Positions 24,376 to 56,147 of a DNA stretch of 64,000 bases are shown here, piece after piece (the first letter of the stretch is position 1; each line of letters begins with the position of its first letter). Origin of the DNA: a virus (Duplodnaviria > Heunggongvirae > Uroviricota > Caudoviricetes). The DNA lies in IMG/VR virus record IMGVR_UViG_3300042868_009434. The stretch is one strand, 5' to 3'. The position numbers and the translations under genes were made by a program. The notes beneath the pieces were generated by a model that ran no database searches, was not told the DNA's origin, and saw only the letters and a list, made by a program, of their open reading frames with translations.

Positions 24376-24567
24376 ATGAAAACAATAATTAAAAATTTAA
24401 AATTAAGAATTAAATTATTTTTCGTATTTTTGCGATGGTGTTGTCTATACCCAAACGATATAAAAGAGAATTGGGATGATATGAATGTTAGATATTATAA
24501 TGAGACAGACCCAGAAATGTTAAAAATATTTAAAGAATTAGAAGATGAAAGTGATATTTCTAGATAA
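24376..24567 (+). CDS. Hypothetical small protein
   Basis: ORF only. Confidence 0.3.
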   Translation: MKTIIKNLKLRIKLFFVFLRWCCLYPNDIKENWDDMNVRYYNETDPEMLKIFKELEDESDISR

Positions 24568-25114
24568 CGATGGTGTTATCTGTTTAGCAAATAATTGGGG
24601 GAGTCGTGTTAAAAAACGAAAGAAAGACAAAGTTTCTTTGATAATGAATGACCCTGATGTTGAGGCAAAATATCGTTTTGATTACTTTGATAAAAAGGCA
24701 ATCAAGGTATTGAATCAGGTATTGGAAGAAACCGGAGCGGAAATCGTTGTGTCTTCCGATTGGAGATTATATGCCAATTTAGAAGAACTTGGTGAATATT
24801 ACTTATCAGAAGGAATTATTAAAAAACCAATCGCAGTCACCAAACGATACATCGGTTGTGATAAACCAGATGAGTTTGAATGGGTACGAGCAACAATGTA
24901 CGAACAACAAAGATGTATTGAAGTTAGACAATATCTAACTGACCATCCTGAAATCACACATTGGGCATGTATTGACGATTTAGAGTTAGGTCAAACAAAC
25001 TCTTATGGAACTGCTAGAAAGTGGGGATTATCAAACTTTGTTCACACACCAAGAGAAAATGAGGGGATTAAACAATCAGGTATTAAAGAAAAATTGTTAG
25101 AATACCTTAAATAA
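24545..25114 (+). CDS. HAD-superfamily phosphatase-like protein
   Basis: Motif I is FLDNDGVI, motif II is VVSSDWR, and a C-terminal ACIDDLE segment serves as the Asp motif. Confidence 0.55.
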   Translation: MKVIFLDNDGVICLANNWGSRVKKRKKDKVSLIMNDPDVEAKYRFDYFDKKAIKVLNQVLEETGAEIVVSSDWRLYANLEELGEYYLSEGIIKKPIAVTKRYIGCDKPDEFEWVRATMYEQQRCIEVRQYLTDHPEITHWACIDDLELGQTNSYGTARKWGLSNFVHTPRENEGIKQSGIKEKLLEYLK

Positions 25115-29329: not shown

Positions 29330-29358
29330 ATAAAAAACCCCCAATTTTCATTGAGGGT
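29330..29358 (-). terminator. Strong rho-independent terminator closing the minus-strand tRNA island
   Basis: On the minus strand, ccctcaat-gaaa-attggggg is followed by T7. Confidence 0.6.
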
Positions 29359-29399
29359 TAACAAATTCAAAAAATATCAATTAAATACAAAAAAAATTG

Positions 29400-29474
29400 T
29401 GTCCTCGGCAGGCATCGAACCTGCATATCTCTCGGTTATGAGCCGAGCGCCTTCACCAATTTAGCTACAAGGAC
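29400..29474 (-). tRNA. tRNA-Met/Ile2 (anticodon CAT)
   Basis: Hand-folded: acceptor gtccttg/cgaggac, anticodon loop ctCATaa, T-arm gcaggttcgatgcctgc. Confidence 0.55.
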
Positions 29475-29564
29475 AAAAATTAGGTTTTGGTGTAAACACC
29501 CTACATGACTTTAACCTAAAAAGTACACTGAGTAATTTAAAACCCCCAGCGGTTTAATTGTGAC

Positions 29565-29792
29565 CTATTGGTGGTTCTTAATGTACCTACCAAATTTATC
29601 CACCCTCACAGAGAGTTTCTCCAATCTAAAGTTCCATTGTTTGAACTTTCCTAAGCCGGTTCTTAACCTTGCTTGTTTAATTGCAGATTCCTCTGCCTTT
29701 TCACGTCCTTCTTCTGTGGTTTCCACAAAAAAAGTGGGAGCCTGAACACCGTTTCTAACGGGAACTACTCTCCAAATTCTCAATTTCTGAGT
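29565..29792 (-). CDS. Hypothetical small basic protein
   Basis: ORF MTQKLRIWRVVPVRNG...; a weak S21-like pattern was not accepted. Confidence 0.25.
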   Translation of the reverse strand, partial: TQKLRIWRVVPVRNGVQAPTFFVETTEEGREKAEESAIKQARLRTGLGKFKQWNFRLEKLSVRVDKFGRYIKNHQ

Positions 29793-29985
29793 CATAATAC
29801 TTGAACTAATCAAGTACTACGAGGAGTTGGGTTTTTGGTTTTTCATATTGATAATTTACACATTTTCTAATTAAAAGAAATATCAAACATTTGGTGGTCT
29901 ATCACCTCACATTTTCAACGGGTCCAATTTTATGTGTGCCTCACGGGTTTACTTCTGCAATGTCGCTTTAATGTTTGGTATTTTG

Positions 29986-30065
29986 TATCCCCGGTGAGAG
30001 TCGAACTCACATGCCTGAGCAACAAGTCTTAAGCCTGTCGTGTATACCAGTTTCACCACGGGGAT
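29986..30065 (-). tRNA. tRNA-Leu (anticodon TAA), type II
   Basis: Acceptor atccccg/cggggat, anticodon arm acagg-cttaaga-cttgt, long variable arm, T-arm gtgagttcgactctcac. Confidence 0.6.
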
Positions 30066-30071
30066 ATTTTG

Positions 30072-30154
30072 AGCTTCCGATTGGATTCGAACCAACGTGA
30101 CCTTTCGGTTCCTGATTACAAATCAGGTGCAATCAACCTCTATGCGACGGAAGC
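30072..30154 (-). tRNA. Atypical type-II tRNA; anticodon loop uuUGUaa (nominal UGU/Thr) with a 14-nt variable arm
   Basis: Acceptor gcttccg/cggaagc, 3-bp D-stem, anticodon stem cctga/tcagg, T-arm gttggttcgaatccaat. Confidence 0.4.
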
Positions 30155-30421
30155 CTGTTTACATTATCACTTCGGCCACATTGGGAGAACCGCAGTTCCC
30201 ACGTTGTTTAAGGAGGTAGTTGGCGGTGTATCACACCGAGTTATGATAATGTATATTTTTACACATCCCTCAAGATGGGGATAACATTGCCCAGAGTACG
30301 ACCTCACAGACTATTATCATACTCAACAAACATAACACTTCTTGTAGTGTTGTAATGAATTTTTTTTCCCCTGTGTTCAATACACCGAATTACTTGTTTG
30401 CCTTTCTATGTGTAAATTTTG

Positions 30422-30496
30422 TACCCACGGTGAGAGTCGAACTCACAAAATCTTCTGAGCCTAAATCAGACGGCTTTCCCGTTTGCCCACGAGGGT
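30422..30496 (-). tRNA. Atypical tRNA-like gene, anticodon UAG with G37 and a short variable arm; shares its T-arm with tRNA-Leu(TAA)
   Basis: Acceptor accctcg/cgtgggt with one U-U mismatch, anticodon arm tctga-tttaggc-tcaga, T-arm gtgagttcgactctcac. Confidence 0.35.
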
Positions 30497-30498
30497 AA

Positions 30499-31167
30499 TT
30501 ATTTTTTTTCGTATGACTTAATCCATTTACGAATTGAATTGTCTGACACACCATATTTTCTACCTGTACCAACATAACCTAATTCACTAATCTCTTTGAT
30601 TAAAACATTATAATCAGGTCGACTAATTTTTTTAGATTTTTCAAATTTACAATCTAAACAAGTTATTGCCTTATCAGAAATTAAATTACCACAATCACAT
30701 TTTTTTGTTTTTTTTATTATAATTTCTTTAACATTTTTTCTACCTGAATAATTATCGGTAATTGAATGACAATTTGGACATAATATTTGTAAATTATTTA
30801 ATTGATTATTAAATCTATTTCCGTCTATATGATGTAATTCTAATGATATTTTATTTTCTAACCATTTATCTAACCCACAATTTTCACATCTATGTTCTTT
30901 AATCCCATCCTCAATTAATTTAACCCTTAATTTGTGTGAATTTATACTATCACAACTTTCAATGTAATCTAAAGCGGTTCTTCGTTTAGAATCTGTTTTT
31001 TTACCTCTTAATCCTTGATTTCCCGAATAATCTATTTCTAACTTTTTCAAATAACTCTCTAAAGTAGATGGTCGACAATTTAATACCTTACATATTGACG
31101 ATTTTGATTCGTTATTTTGAATCATAGTGATAATGTGTTCTTTTTTTTCTAATATGTCTATTCTCAT
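30499..31167 (-). CDS. HNH homing endonuclease
   Basis: The HNH segment CENCGLDKW...LHHIDGN...NLQILCPNCHS is present, along with additional Cys pairs, a zinc ribbon and an HTH-like C-terminus. It lies within the tRNA island. Confidence 0.8.
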   Translation of the reverse strand: MRIDILEKKEHIITMIQNNESKSSICKVLNCRPSTLESYLKKLEIDYSGNQGLRGKKTDSKRRTALDYIESCDSINSHKLRVKLIEDGIKEHRCENCGLDKWLENKISLELHHIDGNRFNNQLNNLQILCPNCHSITDNYSGRKNVKEIIIKKTKKCDCGNLISDKAITCLDCKFEKSKKISRPDYNVLIKEISELGYVGTGRKYGVSDNSIRKWIKSYEKK

Positions 31168-31239
31168 AATACTTTCTTTATATTATAAATATAACATACT
31201 TGTTAAAAAACTAAACAACAAGTATAACATTTTTATTTG

Positions 31240-31311
31240 TACCCTCAATAGGACTCGAACCTATATCAAAACATTAGAAGTGTCTTATTCTATCCCTTGA
31301 ACTATGAAGGC
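31240..31311 (-). tRNA. tRNA-Arg (anticodon TCT)
   Basis: Anticodon arm agaca-cttctaa-tgttt, T-arm ataggttcgagtcctat, acceptor gccttca/tgagggt with G-U pairs. Confidence 0.55.
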
Positions 31312-31318
31312 GGTTTGG

Positions 31319-31390
31319 AGCAGATAGAGAGAATCGAACTCTCGTTTCAAGATTGGAAGTCTGGAGTAATAACCATTATACGATATCTGC
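31319..31390 (-). tRNA. tRNA-Gly (anticodon TCC)
   Basis: Acceptor gcagata/tatctgc, anticodon loop cttccaa, T-arm gagagttcgattctctc. Confidence 0.55.
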
Positions 31391-31470
31391 AGATTTGGGT
31401 AGAATCAGACGCGTTCTGTCTACCGGGACCTCGTCGTTGACTTTCATCAGAGCGGACCAAGACACATTTG
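31391..31470. other. Unresolved 80-nt structured spacer between tRNA-Gly and tRNA-Met
   Basis: Contains the hairpin ggtaga..tctacc and CUGAUGA-like and gcggacc segments. No tRNA fold was found by eye. Confidence 0.2.
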
Positions 31471-31542
31471 TAGCGGGAGAAGGATTCGAACCTCCGACCT
31501 AGAGGTTATGAGCCTCCCGAGCTACCTCTGCTCTATCCCGCA
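31471..31542 (-). tRNA. tRNA-Met (anticodon CAT), second copy; U1-U72 mismatch suggests a possible initiator
   Basis: D-arm gagc-agaggta-gctc, anticodon arm ggagg-ctcataa-cctct, T-arm ggaggttcgaatccttc. Confidence 0.55.
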
Positions 31543-31548
31543 ATTTGT

Positions 31549-31618
31549 TGCAAATCTCAGGAATTGAACCTGATTAAGTCGGCTTATGAGACCGATGAGA
31601 TACCTTACCTCCCGACTG
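31549..31618 (-). pseudogene. tRNA-like element with a CAT anticodon arm and an intact T-arm but a non-pairing acceptor stem
   Basis: D-arm gag..ctc, anticodon arm tcggt-ctcataa-gccga and T-arm tcaggttcaattcctga are present. The acceptor 5-prime strand cagtcgg does not pair with the 3-prime strand gatttgc. Confidence 0.3.
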
Positions 31619-31632
31619 CTGTGTATTATTTA

Positions 31633-31707
31633 TGGCGGTCTATGAGAGAATCGAACTCTCATCTCTACCGTGACAGGGTAGCATCCTAGCCGTTGAACGA
31701 ATAGACC
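31633..31707 (-). tRNA. tRNA-Asp (anticodon GTC) with encoded CCA
   Basis: Acceptor ggtctat/atagacc-g-CCA, anticodon arm ctacc-ctgtcac-ggtag, T-arm gagagttcgattctctc. Confidence 0.7.
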
Positions 31708-31806
31708 AAAATTTCAATTCAAAGGTGACAATCCTATAACAATTGAAGGAGAAAGAACCGTGTTTCCCGGGTAGTGACTTCCCGTATTCTGTCTTTCTGT
31801 TTTTTG

Positions 31807-31878
31807 TGGAGCTATGGAGAATCGAACTCCAATTTATGATTTGCAAAACCATAGTAATTGCCGTTATACTATAACCCC
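31807..31878 (-). tRNA. tRNA-Ala (anticodon TGC) with G3-U70
   Basis: Acceptor ggggtta/tagctcc includes the G3·U70 identity pair. Anticodon arm atggt-tttgcaa-atcat. Confidence 0.7.
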
Positions 31879-31884
31879 TTCTTG

Positions 31885-31956
31885 TACTGCCACGGAGAAT
31901 CGAACTCCGATTTTATGGATGAAAACCATATGTCCTGACCGTTAGACGATGGCAGC
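31885..31956 (-). tRNA. tRNA-Glu (anticodon TTC)
   Basis: Acceptor gctgcca/tggcagt, anticodon arm tatgg-ttttcat-ccata, T-arm cggagttcgattctccg. Confidence 0.65.
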
Positions 31957-32012
31957 GTGTGTATTACCAATATTTCAAATAACTTGTTTCTGTTTGATGG
32001 TACAAAGATAAT
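31957..32012 (-). promoter_or_regulatory. Promoter-like repeat copy A immediately upstream of the tRNA-Glu 5-prime end
   Basis: The minus strand reads ..cTTTGTaCcaTCAAAcAgAAacaaGTTATTTGAAATATTGGTAAtacacac before the tRNA. A 20-nt segment is identical to copy B at 36207-36266. A Bacteroidota-like -33 TTTG and a -7 TAtTTG element are present. Confidence 0.45.
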
Positions 32013-32434
32013 ACTTTATTTTAATCTACCAAACTTTATCCTTTTTCTTCTTCAGTTTCTTCTACATCAACTAAAATGTATTCTGACCCTAAGATTGGTG
32101 AATAAACCAATTCTAATTTTTGATACGTTGTATCGTTTGTTTCTTGTCCTTCCATCTTTAAATTTGTTTCGACAAAGGTAATCATTTTTTTCAAACTACC
32201 AAACATAATGTAAAAAAAAAATCCACCTCTTTTGGAGATGGATTTTATTATATTATTAATTACTTAACTATACATCATACCATCTCCGTCCAAGTTGTAT
32301 CTCTACCCTCGGCTCCTATCGTAAGTAATAATGTATTTAAAGTTTGCATTTGTTGTGTTATTGTAATTTTCTAATAAATATAGTCCTTTTTATAAAAGTG
32401 TCAAGTATTGGTAAGATTTATTTTTAATTTTGGG

Positions 32435-32520
32435 ATAATGATAGGATTCGAACCTATAACCTATACCGACCACATTGTCGGCTGCACGTCCAATTGTGCT
32501 TCAAAATCCATATTTCTTCA
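32435..32520 (-). other. Unresolved tRNA-like element; a canonical T-arm is present but the body is not foldable by eye
   Basis: T-arm ataggttcgaatcctat, with a hairpin ccgac-aatgtg-gtcgg that resembles a variable arm. A possible 5-prime acceptor lies about 60 nt further upstream. Confidence 0.2.
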
Positions 32521-32581
32521 GGAGAGACCCTCAAGGGATAACCATAACGGAATTACCCTTGACTCACTCTCCGTCTTCTTG

Positions 32582-32652
32582 CACACCGCCAAGGACTCGA
32601 ACCCTGAACTTTGAGGTTGGAACTCAAAATGATACCATTTCACCAACGATGT
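32582..32652 (-). tRNA. tRNA-Trp (anticodon CCA)
   Basis: Anticodon arm ttgag-ttccaac-ctcaa, T-arm cagggttcgagtccttg, acceptor acatcgt/gcggtgt with G-U pairs. Confidence 0.55.
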
Positions 32653-32744
32653 ATGTATAAAAACACCCGACCTGACCTGCCAGATAGTACGTGTCGTAGC
32701 GCTTTCGTTACGTAGCGGATGTTTTAATTTTTAAGATTATTACT

Positions 32745-32838
32745 ACGGGACTCGAACCCGTATCCACTTAACTAATATAAGCCTGTTATCCCAAGGTGGT
32801 ATTCATTCCCACTTACACCAAGCAATAATCTTTAAATT
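32745..32838 (-). other. Unresolved elongated tRNA-like element next to an HNH gene
   Basis: T-arm acgggttcgagtcccgt. An acceptor pairing tattgct/agtaata is possible, but the anticodon arm is not evident. Confidence 0.2.
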
Positions 32839-32875
32839 CCGTACAAAAGTACAAAATGATTTTTAATCCACCAAA

Positions 32876-33382
32876 TTAAAAAAACAAATAATCATTCCAT
32901 TCTTCCGGAATATAATGAACTTGTTTAATCATCATCAAATAGTGTGGTCGTCTTGGTTGTGGAATTTCTTTACCATATTCTTCCAATGTCAAATTGGACT
33001 TCTCACTATTACATTTCTTACAAGCGGTTACCAAATTATCCCAAGCGTCTTTACCTCCTTTAGACTGCGGTATTACGTGGTCTAATGTCAATGTCTTACG
33101 ATTTTCACATCCACAATAAACACAGGAGTAATTATCTCTACGATAAACATTCTCTCTACTTAAAGGAACTTTATGAATCGGTTGATTCACATATTTGAAA
33201 ACCCTTATGATTGAAGGTTTCTTAATATCTAATTCAGGATTGATTAGATTAAATGATTCCGGATGTTCGGCAACGACACTCGCATTACCCTTATAAGTTA
33301 TTACAAAAGCCCTTTCAGTGTTTATGATAGACCTTGGCATATAACTTGAATCCAAAACCAACGTTTTTCCGTACTTACTCAC
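32876..33382 (-). CDS. HNH homing endonuclease
   Basis: CVYCGCENRKTLTLDHVIPQSKGGKDAWDNLVTACKKCNSEKSN. Confidence 0.8.
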   Translation of the reverse strand: MSKYGKTLVLDSSYMPRSIINTERAFVITYKGNASVVAEHPESFNLINPELDIKKPSIIRVFKYVNQPIHKVPLSRENVYRRDNYSCVYCGCENRKTLTLDHVIPQSKGGKDAWDNLVTACKKCNSEKSNLTLEEYGKEIPQPRRPHYLMMIKQVHYIPEEWNDYLFF

Positions 33383-33416
33383 GACTTTTGATTTATTAGT
33401 TAAACATTTTTTTTTG

Positions 33417-33491
33417 TGACTCCGGTGGGACTCGAACCCACGATTTTCTCATTAAAAGTGAGAAGCCTTAATCCATCTTGGCCACGAAGTC
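33417..33491 (-). tRNA. tRNA-Lys (anticodon TTT)
   Basis: Acceptor gacttcg/cggagtc, anticodon arm tctca-cttttaa-tgaga, T-arm gtgggttcgagtcccac. Confidence 0.6.
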
Positions 33492-33574
33492 AATTTGAGC
33501 TCATTCTACCTTAACATTGGGCTCAAAATCTCACATATTTGAGCTTAATAATTATGGTTTGTGAGCCACATTTG

Positions 33575-33648
33575 TCGGTACTATAGGAATCGAACCTATA
33601 ACCTCTCACGTATCAGGCGAGTGCTCTAACCAATTGAGCTAAGTACCG
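33575..33648 (-). tRNA. tRNA-Ile (anticodon GAT)
   Basis: D-arm gctc-aattggtta-gagc, anticodon arm ctcgc-ctgatac-gtgag, T-arm ataggttcgattcctat. Confidence 0.6.
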
Positions 33649-33653
33649 GGTCG

Positions 33654-33726
33654 TCGGGTAGACTGGACTCGAACCAGCGTTCTCTACATCCCAAATGTAG
33701 CGGATTACCAACTTTCCTACTACCCG
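33654..33726 (-). tRNA. tRNA-Pro (anticodon TGG)
   Basis: Acceptor cgggtag/ctacccg, anticodon arm ctaca-tttggga-tgtag with G37. Confidence 0.65.
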
Positions 33727-33730
33727 TATT

Positions 33731-33931
33731 TTATTTCACTTCTCGATAAACATTAATTTTATTACCATTTTTAGTGATAAAAGAACCTGTTTCATACCAA
33801 AGTTTTTCTTGTTCCTCTCTTTTTTCAATAATAACCTTAACTCGGTTTATTGTTTCTTGATTAGGACTTGTGTCTATTGTATAAGGAATATTGTTAATTT
33901 CCATATACTTAATGTATTCATTTGTTTCCAT
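33731..33931 (-). CDS. Hypothetical small protein inside the tRNA island
   Basis: 66-aa ORF. Confidence 0.3.
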   Translation of the reverse strand: METNEYIKYMEINNIPYTIDTSPNQETINRVKVIIEKREEQEKLWYETGSFITKNGNKINVYREVK

Positions 33932-33944
33932 ATTCCTTTTTTTG

Positions 33945-34031
33945 CGGAGAACAAGGGAATCGAACCCTCACCGGTTTTACCCGGAACATCTTAGCAGGAT
34001 GCCACTACAAACCAATATTAGACTATTCTCC
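33945..34031 (-). tRNA. tRNA-Ser (anticodon GCT), type II
   Basis: Anticodon arm gcatc-ctgctaa-gatgt, variable arm ccgg-gtaaaa-ccgg, acceptor ggagaat/gttctcc. Confidence 0.55.
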
Positions 34032-34107
34032 ATTTTGTAGGATATCGCTTAACCTACGATGTTGATATCATTACACACCTTTGATATTACTATCAGCGAT
34101 TTTTTTG

Positions 34108-34179
34108 TAGTCTCTGAGGGAATCAAACCCCCACTCTAATATCCGTAGTATTATGTGCTATTCGTTACACCAAGAGACC
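34108..34179 (-). tRNA. tRNA-Arg (anticodon ACG)
   Basis: Acceptor ggtctct/agagact, anticodon arm taata-ctacgga-tatta, T-arm gggggtttgattccctc. Confidence 0.6.
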
Positions 34180-34626
34180 AATTTGAGGTTGAGAACTCCT
34201 CGTGTTGTGCAAATATAGACATAAACCCTTTCAAAATTTATAATCTCACCCGACTATTCCATTCCCCTCTCACGGGAACAACACATTAATTACTAATAAT
34301 ATCTTTATGTAAATCGGGATATTGCATAACCGTATCTAACATTTTTATTTACAAAGATATTATAATTTTACTTCCATTGAGTCTTTCGGTTGTATTTCCA
34401 AGTTTTATAACTTCTATACTTTACTGAAGAATGACCTTTTTTGAAGTTTAAACCTTCATCCCAATATGGTGGAAATTCCTCACGTAACCAAATTCTTCTG
34501 TAATCTTTGGAACAAGTTGCCTTGTTCAATTTCATTCTGTTTGTGTTTACACTCATAATCTCTGAGTCTGTTGTTTAGCAGACCTCAAAGATTATCCAAT
34601 ACTTTTTTCATAATATTTTTTTAATC

Positions 34627-34845
34627 TTATTTATGTTTTTCAACAAGATAGTTAATGTAATCGTCATATCCATCATCGTCTTCTTTTGGTTGGAAATCTT
34701 TATTTAATCGTTCCTCAAGTAACTCATAGGCGATTTTCATAACTTCTTGTTCTTTACCTTTTAATTGGGGGTTAGGAAGTAAAACGAATAATCCGACCAA
34801 ACCTTCTACCAACATTTTTTCACTTTCACTATACTGTCTTTTCAT
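34627..34845 (-). CDS. Hypothetical small protein inside the tRNA island
   Basis: 72-aa ORF. Confidence 0.3.
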   Translation of the reverse strand: MKRQYSESEKMLVEGLVGLFVLLPNPQLKGKEQEVMKIAYELLEERLNKDFQPKEDDDGYDDYINYLVEKHK

Positions 34846-34860
34846 AATATTTTAAATTTG

Positions 34861-34933
34861 GGTGACTAAGGAGAATCGAACTCCCATTTACAGAACCACA
34901 ATCTATCGTGTTAACCGTTACACTATAGCCACC
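34861..34933 (-). tRNA. tRNA-His (anticodon GTG) with G-1:C73
   Basis: An extra 5-prime G pairs with discriminator C. Acceptor gtggcta/tagtcac, D-stem gtgt/acac, anticodon arm ataga-ttgtggt-tctgt. Confidence 0.65.
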
Positions 34934-35040
34934 ATGTATAAACCTAATAATGTGGGTTTGAGATGTACCCTTTTCAACCCGCTTTCACACCCATCACTCC
35001 TAAAGAGCTGTCAGTATCGGATACCACATTTAAGGTTTTG

Positions 35041-35112
35041 TACTCTTGGAAGGAATTGAACCTTCTTTTCATTCTTATCAGGAATGTGTGCTAACCATTC
35101 TACTACAAGAGC
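35041..35112 (-). tRNA. tRNA with anticodon GAT (second Ile-like copy)
   Basis: Acceptor gctcttg/caagagt, anticodon arm cattc-ctgataa-gaatg, T-arm gaaggttcaattccttc. Confidence 0.45.
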
Positions 35113-35189
35113 AATTTTACCCCACTTCACCGGGTTAATGGACCGGCTGCCATATGGGAGTGGGGGTTTCCCGTTATATCGGGACTCCG

Positions 35190-35262
35190 TGGTACCGGTT
35201 GGAATCGAACCAACGACACACAGATTTTCAGTCTGTTGCTCTACCAACTGAGCTACGATACC
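35190..35262 (-). tRNA. tRNA-Phe (anticodon GAA)
   Basis: D-arm gctcagttggtagagc, anticodon arm acaga-ctgaaaa-tctgt, and variable plus T-arm gtgtcgttggttcgattccaac as in bacterial tRNA-Phe. Confidence 0.7.
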
Positions 35263-35322
35263 GGCTCCTGTATACCTTTGCAAAGGTGGTGGTAGTACAG
35301 ACACTATGATTCCACTATTCTG

Positions 35323-35394
35323 CTCTCCCGGGTGGACTCGAACCACCATAAATTGATTAACAGTCAACCGTAATAACCTTTATACGACAGAAGA
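35323..35394 (-). tRNA. tRNA-Asn (anticodon GTT)
   Basis: Anticodon arm gttga-ctgttaa-tcaat, T-arm ggtggttcgagtccacc. Confidence 0.6.
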
Positions 35395-35401
35395 ATTTTT
35401 G

Positions 35402-35474
35402 TGGGTCCTGTAGGAATCGAACCTACTCCTCTAGTTCTTCAGACTAGCGTACGCACCAGCTATACAAAAGACCC
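35402..35474 (-). tRNA. tRNA with anticodon GAA and G37 (second Phe-like copy, atypical)
   Basis: Acceptor gggtctt/aggaccc, anticodon arm ctagt-ctgaaga-actag, T-arm gtaggttcgattcctac. Confidence 0.4.
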
Positions 35475-35618
35475 AATAATGATAATGTTGGAGTACCCAT
35501 CTCGCTCCAATCTTAACTGCTTAATCGTAGTTTTACGAGGCCTCGGCAGGGGGTGCAGAATTCTTGAACCTATCTTGGATTGTCGACATCCGAGAGATAG
35601 AGAAAACCATTATCATAG

Positions 35619-35699
35619 TGGGCAGTAGTGGACTCGAACCACTCCCAAAAGGACCAGATTTACAGTCTGGCTGCCGTATCCGAACGACTTTTACTACCC
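35619..35699 (-). tRNA. tRNA-Tyr (anticodon GTA), type II
   Basis: Anticodon arm ccaga-ctgtaaa-tctgg matches the bacterial Tyr loop. Extended variable region; acceptor gggtagt/actgccc. Confidence 0.6.
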
Positions 35700-35705
35700 A
35701 ATTTG

Positions 35706-35776
35706 TACCTCGTAGTGGAATCGAACCACTTCCCTTTGCATGTAAAACAAATACGCTTCCGTTACGCCAACAAGGT
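35706..35776 (-). tRNA. tRNA-Val (anticodon TAC)
   Basis: Acceptor accttgt/acgaggt, anticodon arm tttgt-tttacat-gcaaa, T-arm agtggttcgattccact. Confidence 0.6.
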
Positions 35777-35837
35777 AATTTTGATTTTTTTAACTTTATA
35801 CTCAAACTTAAAGTTTAAAAACCTAACAACATAAAAC

Positions 35838-35965
35838 ATCAGTACCGAGAAATGGTATCGAGCCATTCTATAGTCGGATATGAGCCGTCTATGGTCACCT
35901 GACCCCTCGGCATTTTGGTGGACATAGATTCATCATCTATTCTTGGGTTTCCACCGAACCCGTTG
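35838..35965. other. Structured non-coding region with nested hairpins inside the tRNA island
   Basis: Hairpins ggtgg...ccacc, aatgg-tatcgag-ccatt and cacc..ggtg are present with no clean tRNA fold. Confidence 0.2.
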
Positions 35966-36037
35966 AGGTGATAGTAGGAATCGAACCCACCTAGCTGAGT
36001 TTGCAATCCAGCGCCTAAACCACTCGACCATATCACC
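35966..36037 (-). tRNA. tRNA-Cys (anticodon GCA)
   Basis: Acceptor ggtgata/tatcacc, anticodon loop ttgcaaa as in the bacterial Cys loop, T-arm gtgggttcgattcctac. Confidence 0.55.
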
Positions 36038-36044
36038 ATTTTTG

Positions 36045-36116
36045 TTACCCCTGAGAGAATCGAACTCCCCCCGCATGGACCAAAACCATGTGTACTAACC
36101 GATATACGAAGGGGCA
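36045..36116 (-). tRNA. tRNA-Gln (anticodon TTG)
   Basis: Anticodon arm catgg-ttttggt-ccatg, acceptor tgcccct/aggggta. Confidence 0.6.
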
Positions 36117-36122
36117 AAATTG

Positions 36123-36206
36123 AGGAAGACATGGGAATCGAACCCACAACGGTGTTACCCGCTACTTGTTTTCAAGACAAGCTCCTCGTCCATTCGGCCG
36201 CCTTCC
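36123..36206 (-). tRNA. tRNA-Ser (anticodon TGA), type II
   Basis: Anticodon arm cttgt-cttgaaa-acaag, long variable arm, acceptor ggaaggc/gtcttcc. Confidence 0.55.
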
Positions 36207-36266
36207 ATTTTGTTTACCAATATTTCAAATAACATATCCTTTATTTTGACGGGACAAAGGTAATCC
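36207..36266 (-). promoter_or_regulatory. Promoter-like repeat copy B immediately upstream of the first tRNA (Ser-TGA) of the island
   Basis: The minus strand reads ..cTTTGTcCcgTCAAAatAAAggataTGTTATTTGAAATATTGGTAAacaaaatgg before the tRNA. It shares GTTATTTGAAATATTGGTAA with copy A. Confidence 0.45.
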
Positions 36267-36286
36267 TTTTTTTCTTACTTCCTAAT

Positions 36287-36328
36287 TTTTAACCAAAAAA
36301 AAATCCTGAACTTTTTGAGTTCAGGATT
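36287..36328 (-). terminator. Perfect inverted-repeat terminator upstream of the tRNA promoter
   Basis: aatcctgaactttttgagttcaggatt with A8 on the plus strand, giving a T-run on the minus strand. Confidence 0.55.
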
Positions 36329-36561
36329 CTTATTATATGTTATGATTATTTTTTATTCAAAAATAATATCACTTAATAAATCAACTGAACTTGTATGCGA
36401 GATACGCGGATACGAACAATTACTAAATTGTTGTTTCCAAATTGAGACGTTCATATGTTTATTAGTGTTTTTCATTTTTCTTTTTTTTGTGGTATTTTTA
36501 CCTGTGTTCTTAATAACTATTACAAACTTACGAAAAGTTTATCAAAAGTCAAATATTTTTT

Positions 36562-39136: not shown

Positions 39137-40801
39137 ATGAGAGTATTAGGATTTTCGGTAGGACACGATAAAGGTGCGGTTATCATAGAAAATGGAAAAG
39201 TTGTGGTGGGTATCACCCAAGAAAGATTATCTAGGATAAAACACGATGGTGCATATCAAGGGGGATTAATTCCTTTTGAATCCATAAACTATTGTTTAAA
39301 TTATTTGAGTATTACTCATAGGGATATAGACTTATTTGTTTATAGTACCACTGAAATAACCGATGATGTTGATTTTCAGTTTTTTAACAAATATCATGAT
39401 TTAAAGAGGGAAAAACTTAAATTTTTACCTCACCATTTGGCACACGCATACTCAACATTTTTTAGTTCAGGTTTTGAAGAATCTGCAATAATCGTTGCGG
39501 ACGCATCCGGAAGTATTTTAAGTTATAAAAACAAATTACACGAATGGTATGATGTTGATAGAACTGATTTAGACCCCGAAGAAGATTGGACCGAAGGAAT
39601 TTCATTATTTCATTTTACAAAAAACGGATATAATGAAGTTTATAAAAAATGGATAAAATATCCTGTACCTATTGACACCAATGAAGGTGTTTCCGTTGGA
39701 ACTGTTTATTCAACAGGTTCTTTACAATTAATTTATGAACCAAATGAACACACTTGGCCCGCAGGTAAATTAATGGGATTGGCGTCATACGCTGATAAAT
39801 CAATTGTGGATGAGGCACCTGAATACGCTCAAGAATTAGAGAATGATATATTCATACCAAATAATACAATTTACCCAAAAGTAACTTGGCAATCCGATTT
39901 TTTCTCAAGAGCGTGTGTTGCCGGAATTTACCAAAAAGAACAAGAAAGGTCTTCTTTAATTTTAGCTAAAATTGCAAAAAACTTAACAAAATCTTCAAAT
40001 GTTTGTGTTGCCGGTGGGTCATTCTTAAATTGTAATTCAAATGAGGTTATATTAAAATCAGGATTATACGAAAATTCTTATTTCTTGGCGCCAAGTGATG
40101 ATAGTGGAATACCGTTAGGATGTGCTTGGTATGCGTATCAACAATTGATAGATATTACATCAGTTGAACCTATGTCACCTTATTTTGGTAAAACATATTC
40201 AAAACAAGAAATCATAACGGCAATTAATAACTACCCTGGATTAAATGTAGTTGAACACACTAAAGAAAGTGATTTAATTAAAGAAGTTACACATTGGTTA
40301 ACCCAAAATAGAGTTATTGGATGGTTCCAAGGTGGTTCAGAAATTGGACCGAGAGCATTAGGTAATCGTTCAATATTGGCATCCCCAATTCAAAAATGGA
40401 TGTCAGGTCATATTAATGGAGATATCAAACATAGAGAATGGTATCGTCCGTTTGCCCCGGCAGTTTTATTTGAACATCAATCTGAAGTCTTTGAATCAGA
40501 TGTTTATTCACCTCATATGTTGGTGACCACATCAGTTAAAGAAGAATGGAGAGAGAAAATACCTGCAGTTACTCACATTGATTATTCTGCTAGACATCAA
40601 TCCGTAACCAAAGAAAATAACCCAAAATTTTATTCACTAATCAATTCGTTTTATGATGAAACCGGTGTTCCTGTTTTACTTAACACAAGTTTTAATGGTC
40701 CACACGAACCAATTGTTGAAACTCCTGAAGAAGCAATTAAAACATTTATTTCAAACAAACTTGACATATTAGTAATCGATAATTTTATTATAAGTAGATA
40801 A
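39137..40801 (+). CDS. NodU/CmcH/TobZ-family O-carbamoyltransferase
   Basis: N-terminal Kae1-like domain MRVLGFSVGHDKGAVIIENGKVVVGITQERLSRIKHDG. An LPHHLAHAYS metal motif and a C-terminal YrdC-like region are present. Confidence 0.75.
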   Translation: MRVLGFSVGHDKGAVIIENGKVVVGITQERLSRIKHDGAYQGGLIPFESINYCLNYLSITHRDIDLFVYSTTEITDDVDFQFFNKYHDLKREKLKFLPHHLAHAYSTFFSSGFEESAIIVADASGSILSYKNKLHEWYDVDRTDLDPEEDWTEGISLFHFTKNGYNEVYKKWIKYPVPIDTNEGVSVGTVYSTGSLQLIYEPNEHTWPAGKLMGLASYADKSIVDEAPEYAQELENDIFIPNNTIYPKVTWQSDFFSRACVAGIYQKEQERSSLILAKIAKNLTKSSNVCVAGGSFLNCNSNEVILKSGLYENSYFLAPSDDSGIPLGCAWYAYQQLIDITSVEPMSPYFGKTYSKQEIITAINNYPGLNVVEHTKESDLIKEVTHWLTQNRVIGWFQGGSEIGPRALGNRSILASPIQKWMSGHINGDIKHREWYRPFAPAVLFEHQSEVFESDVYSPHMLVTTSVKEEWREKIPAVTHIDYSARHQSVTKENNPKFYSLINSFYDETGVPVLLNTSFNGPHEPIVETPEEAIKTFISNKLDILVIDNFIISR

Positions 40802-40804
40802 TTT

Positions 40805-42394
40805 ATGAGTTCAATTTATGGATTCTTTACCGGGTCGCATAGTCCATCTATTGCATTAATTAGAGACGGTAAAATAACATTTTGTATCGAGGAAGAGAGA
40901 TTAACCCGAATAAAATCCGGTGATAATTACGATATTAATTGTGAATTATCATGTATTGAGGCGGAAAAATATACAGGTCTAAAAATAACAGATGCCGATT
41001 ACCGAATCTTTGCAAATCCAACACCGGACGAATTTGCCCGTAAAATTACCAACAATAATTATGAAAAAGTTAGTCACCATACCGCACACGCATATGGGGC
41101 TTACTACACCAGTGGAATGAAAGGTAAATCAATTACCATCACATACGATGGTGGAGGTGAAAGTACCGTAATGAAAGTTTATCTATGTAATAATGGAAAA
41201 ATGACTTTAATCCAAAGTCATCCATTGGCTTCATTTGGTAGTCTTTCTCACGTTTGGGGATTCAGTACATCCTCGATGAGAGGATATGACGAACATGGTG
41301 AGGGAATATGGAAAATGTGTAAAGATGAAGGTAAATTAATGGGTATGGGTCCAAATGGTCATTACGATGAGACAATTTATAATATGTTGTCCACTGTAAT
41401 TAATTATAAGGATTTTAGATTTTACCCATCCGGGTCATCAAGTAAAACCATGTTTTTAGGTGACATGATGAAATCCAATGGATATTTCGATACTCAAGAA
41501 AAAATGGAAATCTATTCATTTAATTTACAAAAACGAACAGAAGACCTATTCCTAAAATTTATTGACGACTTACATAATTTATATCCTGAATATAAGCAAT
41601 TATGCTTATCCGGAGGACTATTTGCCAATGTAAAATTAAATCAAAAACTCAACGAATTAGAATGGATTGACGAAATTTATATTTACCCACCAATGGGTGA
41701 TGAAGGTTTGTCATTAGGAGCCTGTATCTATAAAGCTGTCGAATTGGGTGAGATTACTGAACCAATTGAACTAACTAATGTTTATTTTGGGAAGTCATAC
41801 AATAATGATGAAATACAGGAAATCTCAAAAGATTATAGTTTTAAGAGAGAACCATATAATCCGAAAGATATCGCAAATTATATCAATCAAGGAGGAATCG
41901 TTGGATGGTTTCAAAATGGTTCCGAATTCGGTCCAAGGTCTTTAGGAGCTCGAAGTATTTTAGTTAGACCAACCGAAATCTCAACACACAAATTATTAAA
42001 TAAAAGATTAAATCGATATGATACAATGCCATTTGCACCAATTATATTAGAAGAATCATTTGACAATATTTTTATACCATCAAAATCAAAATACACATCT
42101 GAGTTTATGACATTATGTTACAACACAAAAGATGAGTGGATTGATAAGATACCTGCAGTTATACAAAAGTCAGATAAAACTGCTCGACCCCAAATAGTTA
42201 AAAGGTCTAAAACACCTAAATTTTGGGAAATATTAAATGAATATTATATGTTATCAGGAATACCATTATTATTGAATACATCATTTAATTCACACAATCA
42301 ACCAATCATTGAAAACCCGGAACAAGCATTTGAGTCATTAAAACTTGGGGTCATTGATAAATTAATAATAGAAGATTATGTTTATTTCCCTTAA
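40805..42394 (+). CDS. NodU/CmcH-family carbamoyltransferase, tandem paralog
   Basis: IYGFFTGSHSPSIALIRDGKITFCIEEERLTRIKSGD, SHHTAHAYGAYY; same architecture as the preceding gene. Confidence 0.7.
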   Translation: MSSIYGFFTGSHSPSIALIRDGKITFCIEEERLTRIKSGDNYDINCELSCIEAEKYTGLKITDADYRIFANPTPDEFARKITNNNYEKVSHHTAHAYGAYYTSGMKGKSITITYDGGGESTVMKVYLCNNGKMTLIQSHPLASFGSLSHVWGFSTSSMRGYDEHGEGIWKMCKDEGKLMGMGPNGHYDETIYNMLSTVINYKDFRFYPSGSSSKTMFLGDMMKSNGYFDTQEKMEIYSFNLQKRTEDLFLKFIDDLHNLYPEYKQLCLSGGLFANVKLNQKLNELEWIDEIYIYPPMGDEGLSLGACIYKAVELGEITEPIELTNVYFGKSYNNDEIQEISKDYSFKREPYNPKDIANYINQGGIVGWFQNGSEFGPRSLGARSILVRPTEISTHKLLNKRLNRYDTMPFAPIILEESFDNIFIPSKSKYTSEFMTLCYNTKDEWIDKIPAVIQKSDKTARPQIVKRSKTPKFWEILNEYYMLSGIPLLLNTSFNSHNQPIIENPEQAFESLKLGVIDKLIIEDYVYFP

Positions 42395-56104: not shown

Positions 56105-56138
56105 AAAAAATCCTCATTTATTGAGGATTTTTTTTTAT
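56105..56138 (+). terminator. Rho-independent terminator
   Basis: aatcctcatttattgaggatt followed by T9. Confidence 0.6.
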
Positions 56139-56147
56139 CTTTGCATT

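Follow-up and report, generated by a model that had tools for sequence, protein, structure and literature searches.

The DNA analysed here is a 64,000-nucleotide (nt) stretch of the genome of an uncultured phage (IMG/VR record IMGVR_UViG_3300042868_009434, Caudoviricetes; hereafter the window), with a G+C content of 32.5% and a dense island of transfer RNA (tRNA) genes. A preliminary description had placed about 26 minus-strand tRNAs in about 7 kb, and two independent finders agree on 26: ARAGORN reports 26 genes, which all lie on the minus strand within 29399-36206, the rest of the window having none, and Rfam cmscan recovers the same 26, of which 23 match RF00005 (46.9-74.5 bits) and three long-arm genes (two tRNA-Ser and tRNA-Tyr) are reported under the clan partner tRNA-Sec. 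The automated finders keep the calls rather than reject most of them. Rfam adds two weak tRNA-like matches barely over the gathering score (32433-32508, 31.7 bits; 31549-31619, 31.2 bits), and the intron and transfer-messenger RNA (tmRNA) modes of ARAGORN added nothing in the island. Details that had been read by hand, namely G3-U70 in tRNA-Ala, G-1 opposite C73 in tRNA-His and the encoded CCA of tRNA-Asp, are true in sequence, as are the second copies of tRNA-Phe(GAA) and tRNA-Ile(GAT). All 20 amino acids are covered only when an atypical gene with the anticodon UGU is counted as tRNA-Thr. The locus is very probably a genuine T5-style tRNA island, in which the tRNAs of switched architecture are working isoacceptors, one of two HNH genes is mobile and the other resident, and several spacers encode structured RNAs.

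The island was compared with related loci, recognised by a DUF6915 gene that lies just upstream of the island. More than 597 relatives occur in IMG/VR, of which 80 loci were fetched, and later 158 in total; L numbers designate these loci of related phage contigs, and island counts refer to them. Nearly all DUF6915-neighbourhood loci have adjoining tRNA islands. The genes, their conservation and covariation, an allelic replacement, an insertion polymorphism and homology to phage T5 are direct observations. The features on which the comparison turns are two atypical tRNA genes and two HNH genes:

30071..30154, minus strand: tRNA-Thr(UGU), 84 nt, with a long variable arm (ARAGORN; Rfam 56.7 bits)
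30421..30496, minus strand: tRNA-Leu(UAG), 76 nt, with a short variable loop (ARAGORN; Rfam 51.1 bits)
30499..31167, minus strand: HNH gene of 222 amino acids, F-TflIV (T5/BF23 hegA) family, with helix-turn-helix domains at both ends and a central HNH motif
32876..33382, minus strand: stand-alone HNH endonuclease gene of 168 amino acids (HNH_5; Pfam HNH_5 60.3 bits, HNH 58.4 bits)

The tRNA-Thr(UGU) gene has a 7-base-pair (bp) acceptor stem, the anticodon arm CCUGA-UUUGUAA-UCAGG, a normal T arm and the discriminator U73. Its D arm, with a 3-bp stem GCA/UGC and an 11-nt loop containing GG, is invariant in four variants and is of the Leu/Ser/Tyr type. The variable region of 14 nt forms a stem ACC/GGU with the loop GAAA, a hairpin of more than 10 nt as in class II tRNAs. 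A pattern scan of viral contigs gave 17 stretches, which together with the earlier loci amount to four distinct variants at 20 loci; an exact-pattern scan of 185,579 bacterial and archaeal species genomes gave no match. All 23 pairs are kept in all four variants (100%), 7 of the 23 with compensatory changes, and the variable-arm stem has one compensatory pair (A-U to U-A). In Escherichia coli and Thermus thermophilus, threonine identity is set by the acceptor pairs G1-C72 and C2-G71 together with G35 and U36 of the anticodon. All of these are invariant here, as is U73, and G1-C72, C2-G71 and U73 also occur in the ordinary 72-76-nt short-arm tRNA-Thr(UGU) of related islands. A review likewise places threonine identity in acceptor-stem pairs and anticodon nucleotides (PMC9976931). 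Further, the 5' acceptor strand GCUUCCG of the long-arm form is identical to that of the short-arm tRNA-Thr of L078. Because these identity features are common to the short-arm tRNA-Thr of relatives, the UGU gene would be a tRNA-Thr that was remodelled, as opposed to a tRNA gene for Ser or Leu whose anticodon mutated; it would have gained a variable-arm hairpin and a 3-bp D stem and kept the acceptor and anticodon features that threonyl-tRNA synthetase (ThrRS) reads. Among loci with at least eight tRNAs, 17 have only the long form, 72 only the short form and none both. The earlier suspicion that a type-II tRNA with a UGU loop was the missing Thr isoacceptor is supported by the invariant acceptor and anticodon features and by the lack of any other tRNA-Thr in the island. 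We infer that this gene encodes a ThrRS-charged isoacceptor, the sole Thr tRNA of the island.

The reverse change appears to have taken place in the tRNA with the UAG anticodon. As the preliminary description had noted, it has a short variable arm and shares its T arm, GTGAGTTCGACTCTCAC, with tRNA-Leu(TAA), the two T arms being identical; it is a Leu tRNA. It carries A73, G37, a 3-bp D stem, the Leu-type D loop AAACGGGAAA with GG, and a variable loop ending in U. This loop has 7 nt in the window and 5 nt in most relatives, short of a long arm. In an alignment of short-arm Leu genes (13 distinct UAG variants and one UAA), 98.2% of cells are paired and 17 of 20 pairs are compensatory, against 35-59% paired in controls with slid partners. 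Counted by locus, the UAG gene is short only in 26 cases, long only in 55 and never both. The leucyl-tRNA synthetase (LeuRS) of E. coli needs A73 and tertiary elements of the D and T loops, the long arm being dispensable (PMC9976931). A73 is present in all 14 short-arm sequences, together with the Leu-type D loop and its tertiary contacts (G18G19, A15:U48-type). Since the arm is dispensable for E. coli LeuRS, its absence would lower membership of the canonical structural class and not leucine function. The same review describes the long Leu arm as universal outside animal mitochondria (PMC9976931), a rule to which the phage short-arm genes are, as read from their sequences, an exception. The tRNA-Leu(UAG) would thus have lost its variable arm and kept the A73 and Leu-type D arm read by bacterial LeuRS, and it is probably a working isoacceptor charged by that enzyme.

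Long arms with unexpected anticodons are also found elsewhere among the relatives. A long-arm Asn(GUU) with G73 is present in L001 (Cellulophaga phage phi4:1, 4944-5032), L010, L034, L061, L065, L075 and L079, a long-arm Cys(GCA) with U73 in L011, L034 and L044, and a long-arm Trp(CCA) with G73 in L043 and L079. The discriminator fits the amino acid of the anticodon in each of the three, and the long form never stands beside a short-arm copy. In L087 (6136-6212) and L093 (5155-5231), tRNA-like genes lie between Thr and Leu for which ARAGORN gives a 4-base anticodon (gaaa), implying an enlarged anticodon loop.

A distant-mode search with the Thr gene matched the tRNA-Thr of T5-like phages in record AJ604531 (Salmonella phage 5 tRNA gene region). 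No paper discussing the long-arm Thr or short-arm Leu genes of phages was found in the searchable literature, and the precedent is the GenBank annotation. The depositors of AJ604531 record that a CUA anticodon turns the Thr and Leu(UUA) tRNAs into effective amber suppressors, and on that note both architectures work in E. coli translation.

The 222-residue HNH protein aligns over residues 1-222 with hegA/F-TflIV of T5 and BF23 (37.6-38.9% identity, E ~1e-37, tblastn). It scores 116.8 bits against an HNH PHROG and only 18.9 bits against Pfam HNH, under the 21.4 cut-off. F-TflIV is a characterised site-specific endonuclease from the T5 tRNA region, and other endonucleases are found inside tRNA clusters, namely SegB of T4 and F-TflI and F-TflII of T5 (PMC2330249). 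The site between tRNA-Arg(UCU) and tRNA-Leu(UAG) is empty in L003, L086, L087 and L090, which have an 8-nt spacer, CAACAATT, and is filled at the same place in the window, L089, L091 and L094. The junctions in the window are precise (Arg-CAA[cassette]AATT-Leu). By this clean presence/absence insertion the gene is a mobile homing-type endonuclease gene, with predicted cleavage activity, that would have entered the 8-nt spacer. Its neighbours are two intact tRNA genes, so the earlier statement that the HNH genes sit beside degenerate elements does not hold for it. Further, L087 has the window's Leu(UAG) allele and lacks the HNH gene, which argues that the endonuclease did not create the short-arm architecture. 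The neighbouring Leu(UAG) allele of the HNH-positive loci L089, L091 and L094 has a non-canonical T loop, UGCAACU. In T5 and BF23 (L160, AJ604530), hegA/F-TflIV follows tRNA-Ile2, and Salmonella phage 5 (L159, AJ604531) has there a small open reading frame (ORF) and a short-arm Leu(UAA). The endonuclease gene and the short-arm tRNA look like alternative occupants of one slot, an arrangement which hints that the F-TflIV family may target sequences in or near short-arm Leu genes.

The 168-residue HNH protein, which had also been taken for a homing endonuclease, does carry the HNH domain. Of 98 related loci, 76 have it (36-98% identity), and unrelated large phages, large cyanophages among them, encode homologues of full length. 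With so wide a distribution among the relatives it would be a resident gene of the phage group and not a sporadic homing gene; of the pair first described as homing endonucleases, mobility is thus seen for the 222-residue protein. The gene lies 47 nt upstream of the structured RNA E6, described below. Its domain is closest to the HNH of IscB, Cas9 and Cas9d (NCBIfam IscB 64 bits, below the model cut-off). Roles as a packaging enzyme or an RNA-guided nuclease were considered and set aside, the similarity to IscB and Cas9 reaching no further than the HNH domain and nothing else speaking for either role.

The island is also highly mosaic. In L003, the closest relative, the flanks are ~95% identical and the island is broken by many indels at tRNA boundaries. 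Present only in the window are the second tRNA-Phe, tRNA-Trp with E6, the tRNA-Met at 31470, the cassette of the HNH gene and a block of 1 kb that holds two small ORFs and the Arg and Ser genes; present only in L003 is a 220-nt insert between Thr and Leu(UAA). The Pro and Ile genes of L003 are apparently fused through their T arms. Deletion ends at L003 12980-13002 and 14700-14790, set against 33596-33652 and 31476-31568 of the window, fall inside tRNA or tRNA-like genes. Together with the Pro/Ile fusion these ends suggest recombination between conserved T-arm sequences, and the comparison supports frequent recombination in the island, as the preliminary description had suspected.

Between the tRNA genes, several spacers are kept in 13-33 of the first 97 loci at 80-99% identity. 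Five of them are as follows:

35475..35617, minus strand: E1, a structured RNA of ~140 nt (18 distinct variants; 22 of 31 predicted pairs compensatory)
35113..35188, minus strand: E2, an RNA of ~72 nt that abuts tRNA genes on both sides (two hairpins with GGAGU/ACUCC and CCCC/GGGG forming a pseudoknot)
34182..34323, minus strand: E3, a segment upstream of tRNA-Arg(ACG) (9 variants, 6 of 28 pairs compensatory; 21 loci)
30155..30262, minus strand: E4, an RNA of ~92 nt (99.7% paired; 8 of 27 pairs compensatory, including a pseudoknot)
31391..31469, minus strand: E5, the 79-nt Met-Gly spacer with a GC fraction of 0.49 (13 loci, 85-97% identity)

E1 is closed by a 9-bp helix (AUGAUAAUG/CAUUAUCAU). 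It contains a long hairpin, the loop of which is invariant and includes AUGUCGACAAU, and a further, 3' hairpin with the loop GGGU, which is able to pair with an invariant CACCC; E1 lies directly upstream of tRNA-Phe in 32 of 55 instances. For E2, a four-helix pseudoknot model leaves 98.2% of cells paired, with compensatory changes at 7 of 18 pairs. E2 varies little: 92 instances give 34 variants, set apart almost entirely by two covarying stem positions, and 82 of the 92 directly follow a tRNA, usually Phe. Its 22-nt core is found in 61 viral contigs and, by an exact-pattern scan, in none of the 185,579 species genomes. E3 combines a 7-bp helix (GUGUUGU/GCACAAC) and two hairpins with a TAnnTTTG-type box, TATATTTG, and on account of this box is probably in part a promoter or leader. 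E4 is closed by a helix of 10 bp (CAUUAUCAU/GUGAUAAUG) and further has inner helices and a pseudoknot that covaries (ACCGC/GCGGU); it occupies the Arg-Leu spacer in 32 of 52 instances. E1 and E4 have the same closing helix of 9-10 bp with the strands swapped (AUGAUAAUG...CAUUAUCAU against CAUUAUCAU...GUGAUAAUG), and a third half-site of this helix, AUGAUAAUA, lies at 30312-30320.

Rfam 15 gave no match to E1, E2 or E4 at E <= 1 over the island and E <= 10 over sub-regions, returning only the known tRNAs and noise, and neither E1 nor E2 had a match among GenBank phages. Several identities were tried and rejected. A YrlA match at 35207-35374 was set aside as weak (23 bits, threshold 69) and as extending over two tRNA genes. 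For E2, the helix order, inspected by eye, is unfit for a hepatitis delta virus-like ribozyme; a CUGAUGA box that would suit a hammerhead is found in one variant only and in the wrong place; and several riboswitch consensus sequences did not fit and had no Rfam support. The motif ATGATAATG, considered as a dispersed repeat, has 76 matches in the window against 40 expected with one mismatch allowed, and these are scattered, AT-rich and uninformative. E1, E2 and E4 are taken as three putative RNA families, uncharacterised and strongly constrained.

The remaining tRNA-like segments are of two kinds, three imperfect tRNAs and one RNA with the outline of a tRNA:

35842..35919, minus strand: tRNA-like element with a CAU loop, found by relaxed ARAGORN only
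32433..32508, minus strand: weak tRNA-like element (Rfam 31.7 bits; otherwise found by relaxed ARAGORN only, with a 4-base 'anticodon')
31549..31619, minus strand: tRNA-like element with CAU, with intact D and anticodon arms and a defective acceptor stem (Rfam 31.2 bits)
32735..32828, minus strand: E6, a tRNA-like RNA (terminal helix of 11-12 bp; D-like and variable hairpins; canonical T arm)

In the element at 35842-35919 the D arm is reduced, the anticodon stem (6 bp) has an A-A mismatch and the T loop reads CUCGAUA; the orthologue in L003 has a perfect 7-bp acceptor stem, and L004-L007 have a normal tRNA-Met at this position. In that at 32433-32508 the acceptor stem has two U-U mismatches, and the size of the anticodon loop departs from the normal 7 nt. 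The CAU element at 31549-31619, whose poor acceptor stem accords with the broken one reported before, has a second allele in L003 with a different T arm and 3' end. All three look like damaged or non-decoding tRNAs. E6 folds with no anticodon arm, and its terminal helix and variable hairpin covary (5 variants); it scores 27.5 bits against the Rfam tRNA model, under the gathering score, and belongs to no Rfam family. Three elements with T arms had been reported as unfoldable. Among the segments that resist folding as tRNAs, several are conserved structured RNAs of a non-tRNA kind.

As to other identities for E6, ARAGORN in tmRNA mode found none in the island and the permuted-tmRNA model reaches 12.7 against a threshold of 47 bits, so that a tmRNA was rejected; a YrlA or Y RNA was likewise rejected, RF02553 giving no match even at E <= 10 in a 481-nt search and the likeness being in outline only. 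No Rsr (Ro60/TROVE) domain occurs in the 40 ORFs scanned of the 48 window ORFs of at least 150 amino acids. A separate family of tRNA-like RNAs is present in relatives, with conserved ends AGUCAGGUGGC...ACAGGUUCGAAUCCUGUCCUGACUAC, a Leu-type D arm and an abnormal, variable 'anticodon' region. Its members (L010:11947-12027, L078:11911-11995, L055:13028-13119, L083/L090/L095 and L093:5454-5544) are labelled Gln, Gly, Pro, Arg or Ser by ARAGORN, and the outline resembles T5 'RNA1'.

Signals for transcription, among them hairpins like those of intrinsic terminators, divide the island into two parts:

36299..36331, minus strand: terminator-like hairpin closing the upstream gene, before the island (14 pairs and a T run)
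36214..36232, minus strand: 19-nt leader repeat TTATTTGAAATATTGGTAA, copy 1, 7 nt upstream of tRNA-Ser(UGA), the first tRNA of unit 1
32218..32246, minus strand: terminator-like hairpin ending transcription unit 1 (12 pairs and a T run)
31964..31982, minus strand: 19-nt leader repeat, copy 2, 7 nt upstream of tRNA-Glu
29336..29359, minus strand: terminator-like hairpin ending the island (hairpin and T run)

The window has two copies of the leader repeat and no more, one just ahead of each sub-cluster's first tRNA, and a TAnnTTTG-type box, TACCTTTG, stands ~30 nt upstream of copy 1. By these signals the island can be read as two transcription units on the same strand, one at 36.2-32.2 kb and the other at 32.0-29.3 kb. 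The segment 32211-32430 (minus strand) is kept in ~10 relatives. Besides the unit-1 terminator it contains a possible ORF of 24 codons and a sigma-70-like promoter close to consensus (TTGACA-16-TATATT, 32404-32377), and it may give a small transcript of its own within the island.

The other tRNA genes and the small ORFs among them are:

36122..36206, minus strand: tRNA-Ser(UGA), long variable arm (ARAGORN; Rfam clan match)
36044..36116, minus strand: tRNA-Gln(UUG) (ARAGORN; Rfam 48.3 bits)
35965..36037, minus strand: tRNA-Cys(GCA) (ARAGORN; Rfam 49.5 bits)
35705..35776, minus strand: tRNA-Val(UAC) (ARAGORN; Rfam 54.8 bits)
35618..35699, minus strand: tRNA-Tyr(GUA), long variable arm, normal for bacteria (ARAGORN; Rfam)
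35401..35474, minus strand: tRNA-Phe(GAA) copy 1, G37 (ARAGORN; Rfam 58.7 bits)
35322..35394, minus strand: tRNA-Asn(GUU), short-arm form (ARAGORN; Rfam 56.7 bits)
35189..35262, minus strand: tRNA-Phe(GAA) copy 2, within a ~133-bp segment absent from the closest relative, L003 (ARAGORN; Rfam 74.5 bits)
35040..35112, minus strand: tRNA-Ile(GAU) copy 2 (ARAGORN; Rfam 57.9 bits)
34860..34932, minus strand: tRNA-His(GUG), with the encoded G-1 at 34933 (Rfam 59.5 bits)
34627..34845, minus strand: small ORF, 72 amino acids, with no family match (in 2 loci)
34368..34556, minus strand: small ORF, 62 amino acids (kept in 10 related loci)
34107..34179, minus strand: tRNA-Arg(ACG) (ARAGORN; Rfam 49.9 bits)
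33944..34031, minus strand: tRNA-Ser(GCU), long variable arm (ARAGORN; Rfam)
33731..33931, minus strand: small ORF, 66 amino acids (ORF list, locus comparison)
33653..33726, minus strand: tRNA-Pro(UGG) (ARAGORN; Rfam 65.6 bits)
33574..33648, minus strand: tRNA-Ile(GAU) copy 1 (ARAGORN; Rfam 71.5 bits)
33416..33491, minus strand: tRNA-Lys(UUU) (ARAGORN; Rfam 63.8 bits)
32581..32652, minus strand: tRNA-Trp(CCA) (ARAGORN; Rfam 46.9 bits)
32036..32206, minus strand: small ORF, 56 amino acids, at the head of unit 2 (8 loci)
31884..31956, minus strand: tRNA-Glu(UUC) (ARAGORN; Rfam 62.6 bits)
31806..31878, minus strand: tRNA-Ala(UGC), G3-U70 (ARAGORN; Rfam 56.5 bits)
31633..31707, minus strand: tRNA-Asp(GUC), encoded CCA (ARAGORN; Rfam 58.4 bits)
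31470..31542, minus strand: tRNA-Met(CAU), U1-U72 mismatch, an initiator-like top pair (ARAGORN; Rfam 62.4 bits)
31316..31390, minus strand: tRNA-Gly(UCC) (ARAGORN; Rfam 61.7 bits)
31239..31311, minus strand: tRNA-Arg(UCU) (ARAGORN; Rfam 60.8 bits)
29985..30065, minus strand: tRNA-Leu(UAA), canonical long-arm form (ARAGORN; Rfam 51.2 bits)
29565..29813, minus strand: small ORF, 82 amino acids (kept in 11 loci)
29399..29474, minus strand: CAU-anticodon tRNA, elongator Met or lysidine-type Ile2 (ARAGORN; Rfam 59.8 bits)

The ORFs of the window prefer codons ending in A or U, with ACA at 41% of Thr, TTA at 61% of Leu, AGA at 67% of Arg, AAA at 84% of Lys and AUA at 23% of Ile codons. This preference fits a tRNA set that mostly has U34, that is, U at the wobble position; the island would supply at least one tRNA for every amino acid. 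AUA codons (23% of Ile) have no UAU tRNA in the island, and one of the CAU genes should accordingly be a lysidine-type tRNA-Ile2. The tRNA-Lys(UUU) has a 3-bp D stem and a large Ser-like D loop, GGCCAAGAUGGAUUAAGGC; it has G40 against C40 in E. coli tRNA-Lys, the nucleotide 5' of the cut made by the defence system PARIS (PMC12409363).

Profile scans of proteins encoded in the window found a T4-type portal, large terminase and prohead protease, a ClpB-like ATPase and ClpP. The head and packaging genes of the phage are T4-like, and its host is probably a member of Bacteroidota. A T4 RnlA-type RNA ligase (56121-57227, plus strand), a HAD 'Swiss army knife' RNA-repair domain (24545-25114, plus strand) and a metallophosphoesterase (54041-54703, plus strand) may together make up a module for tRNA repair, as would suit pressure from defences that cut tRNAs. 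Two tandem carbamoyltransferase genes (39137-42394), the ClpB-like double AAA+ ATPase (16490-18505) and the ClpP protease (43043-43789), all on the plus strand, are unusual auxiliary genes for a phage.

Not all observations sit easily with working isoacceptors in a two-unit island. The window's own Leu(UAG) allele combines a U5-U68 mismatch with its 7-nt variable loop; in L093, position 5-68 is a U-G pair. The covariation of the long-arm tRNA-Thr rests on few sequences, namely four distinct variants, and as the analysis covered the 64-kb window, a canonical tRNA-Thr could sit elsewhere in the genome. The variable-region hairpin resembles the feature read by seryl-tRNA synthetase (SerRS) and may allow some mischarging. 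The upstream TAnnTTTG-type boxes suggest Bacteroidota-style promoters by motif resemblance only.

The mischarging point can be taken further. SerRS or LeuRS, anticodon-blind enzymes that read long arms, might charge the UGU tRNA, and ACA would then be mistranslated deliberately or tolerably. The long-arm architecture favours such a view, and the variable-arm hairpin CCGAAAGG resembles that of E. coli tRNA-Ser. There is also precedent in the nev-tRNAs of nematodes, which pair a long arm with non-Leu, non-Ser anticodons and are Leu-charged (PMC3333845). However, U73 is found in all variants, as opposed to the G73 of Ser and the A73 of Leu, the bacterial Thr set (G1-C72, C2-G71, G35-U36) does not vary, and the lineage's own short-arm tRNA-Thr is the source of the acceptor and anticodon arms. 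The variable-arm stem is just 3 bp, and the T5-like counterpart is annotated as an ACA reader. Further, ACA is the commonest Thr codon (~2.4% of all codons) and no second Thr tRNA is present, so that mischarging would be proteome-wide; the proposal is highly improbable. The preliminary description had instead pointed to endonuclease-driven remodelling; on that view the atypical and unfoldable elements would be decaying tRNA genes and debris from repeated cutting and repair around the HNH genes. The island is indeed far more mosaic than its flanks in the comparison with L003, some indels look like T-arm-to-T-arm deletions, the elements at 31549-31619, 35842-35919 and 32433-32508 resemble damaged tRNAs, and the HNH-positive L089, L091 and L094 have the odd T loop in their Leu(UAG). 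Set against this are the Thr and Leu helices maintained by compensatory changes, the finding that each atypical tRNA is the only gene for its anticodon wherever present, the Leu(UAG) allele of L087 with no HNH gene, the function of both architectures in T5-like phages, the covariation of E1, E2 and E4, which are more conserved than the tRNAs, and the non-sporadic 168-residue HNH gene. Endonuclease-driven degeneration is accordingly an unlikely origin for the atypical tRNAs, and that part of the preliminary description is not upheld.

For the spacers, the choice is between independent RNAs and parts of the precursor that act in cis, such as processing platforms, promoters, leaders or endonuclease targets. 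All of them directly adjoin tRNA genes, the closing helix common to E1 and E4 could be a processing stem, and E3, with its TAnnTTTG-type box, looks partly promoter-like. However, near-invariant unpaired nucleotides and covarying pseudoknots are typical of folded RNAs that bind a ligand or protein and not of simple processing stems, and the analogous segments of T5 and T4 accumulate, according to their annotations, as stable RNAs. A cis-acting role for E1, E2 and E4 is thus possible and the less favoured of the two. As predicted RNAs, E1, E2, E4 and E6 would be analogous to the "stable RNAs of unknown function" of T5 and T4. From their position beside tRNAs, and by analogy to T4 rnaC/rnaD and T5 RNA I/III, RNase P and 3'-end trimming enzymes acting on the flanking tRNAs would release them from the polycistronic transcript.

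Why tRNA architecture should be switched may be connected with host defences that cut tRNAs. AriB of PARIS cuts the E. coli tRNAs for Lys(UUU), Thr(UGU) and Asn(GUU) between positions 40 and 41, and the T5 versions of these tRNAs neutralise the system (PMC12409363). Similarly, in tRNA-Thr(UGU) OLD of P2 cleaves at paired CNG motifs, and rescue comes from Thr tRNAs of phages (PMC12445682). Of the T5 tRNAs that neutralise PARIS, those for Thr and Asn have the long arm. In the window, tRNA-Thr keeps the cut-site sequence U36-A-A-U-C-A41 and the paired CNG motifs, and its anticodon arm differs from the reference arm of the cited work only at pair 27-43 and nucleotide 32. As the AriB motif and the CNG pairs are retained, architecture and not cut-site sequence would be the determinant of resistance. 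In such a scheme, an arm and a 3-bp D stem would have been added to Thr(UGU), Asn(GUU) and, in relatives, Cys and Trp, and the arm would have been deleted from Leu; nucleases could be blocked by a bulky arm that stands beside the anticodon stem's 3' strand, together with the remodelling of the D loop. The published explanation for T5 is a different one, substitutions near the cut site. Selection of the switched architecture by tRNA-cutting defences, yielding tRNAs that are chargeable yet unreadable to shape-reading nucleases, as a general counter-defence of phages in which E1, E2 and E4 would be new RNA families taking part, for example as decoys or inhibitors, is therefore offered as a speculative proposal. 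The island suggests a testable link to PARIS and OLD, recently discovered defences whose targets are the same isoacceptors.

Long arms in tRNA-Thr and tRNA-Asn and a short arm in tRNA-Leu are no peculiarity of T5: a large and very widespread group of environmental phages of another lineage carries them as conserved replacements for, and mutually exclusive with, the canonical forms. An F-TflIV-type endonuclease accompanies them, and they run against the textbook rule by which a long arm is confined to Leu, Ser, bacterial Tyr and Sec and is always present in Leu outside animal mitochondria. Further, the dozens of natural variants of E1, E2 and E4 could help to explain the stable RNAs in phage tRNA clusters.

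Among known systems, the nematode nev-tRNAs and bacterial allo-tRNAs resemble the window's tRNA-Thr in joining a long variable arm to the anticodon of another amino acid. Those tRNAs, however, keep Leu or Ser identity and mistranslate or suppress, whereas in the window the identity elements follow the anticodon (U73, G1-C72, C2-G71) and the gene takes the place of the canonical isoacceptor. By DNA, the nearest cultured relatives are the Cellulophaga phages phi4:1 and phi17:2 (Lightbulbvirus), which have a same-strand island of 23 tRNAs. As in the window, a short-arm Leu(UAG) lies next to a long-arm Leu(UAA), and their long-arm tRNA with an unexpected anticodon is Asn GUU, annotated in GenBank as a pseudogene. 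In contrast to the window, their Thr is canonical and short-armed, their island has no HNH gene, E1 and E2 are absent, and only tRNA-Glu is similar at the DNA level (87%). The T4 cluster likewise is a tRNA array with a free-standing homing endonuclease gene, segB, adjoining tRNA-Arg (PMC2330249), and its stable RNAs rnaC and rnaD are encoded head-to-tail with the tRNAs, rnaC having a T arm as E6 does; the phage of the window, too, encodes an RnlA-type RNA ligase. The outline of E6 resembles both rnaC and T5 "RNA2", each ending in a T arm. Unlike the window, T4 has 8 tRNAs, and the architecture is canonical in each of them (76 nt for Thr, 87 nt for Leu); SegB belongs to the GIY-YIG and not the HNH enzymes, and rnaC and rnaD have no sequence similarity to E1, E2 or E4.

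The closest parallel is with the T5-like phages (T5, BF23 and Salmonella phage 5; AJ604531, AJ604530; Demerecviridae), which also have a dense same-strand array of more than 20 tRNAs in several transcription units. The tRNA-Thr(UGU) of phage 5, annotated as reading ACA, has, like that of the window, 84 nt (plus CCA), an identical anticodon arm and the same type of D arm, with 60 of 83 nt identical; its variable arm is GGA-GUAA-UCC, that of the window ACC-GAAA-GGU. Its tRNA-Asn(GUU) has the variable arm GUC-GAAA-GAC and a T arm identical to that of the long-arm Asn of phi4:1 and several related loci. Both Leu(UAG) and Leu(UAA) of phage 5 have 74 nt, a GUUUU variable loop and A73, an architecture like that of the window's Leu(UAG). 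Further, an HNH endonuclease gene lies among the tRNAs (F-TflIII in phage 5, F-TflIV in T5 and BF23), as do small ORFs, and eight features of phage 5 are annotated "stable RNA" or "tRNA-like RNA with unknown functions", positions like those in which the window has the covarying E1, E2, E4 and E6. The differences are that the window belongs to another lineage, with a T4-like portal, terminase and prohead protease and promoter-like motifs of Bacteroidota type; that its Leu(UAA) and Asn are still canonical, long-armed and short-armed respectively; that E1, E2 and E4 have no detectable similarity to T5 RNA I, III, IV, 2H, 1, 2 or 3; and that its HNH gene stands at the Arg|Leu junction, that of T5 at Ile2|ORF. 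As the layout, the endonuclease and the putative small structured RNAs match the T5 tRNA region, the island is a new example rather than a new kind.

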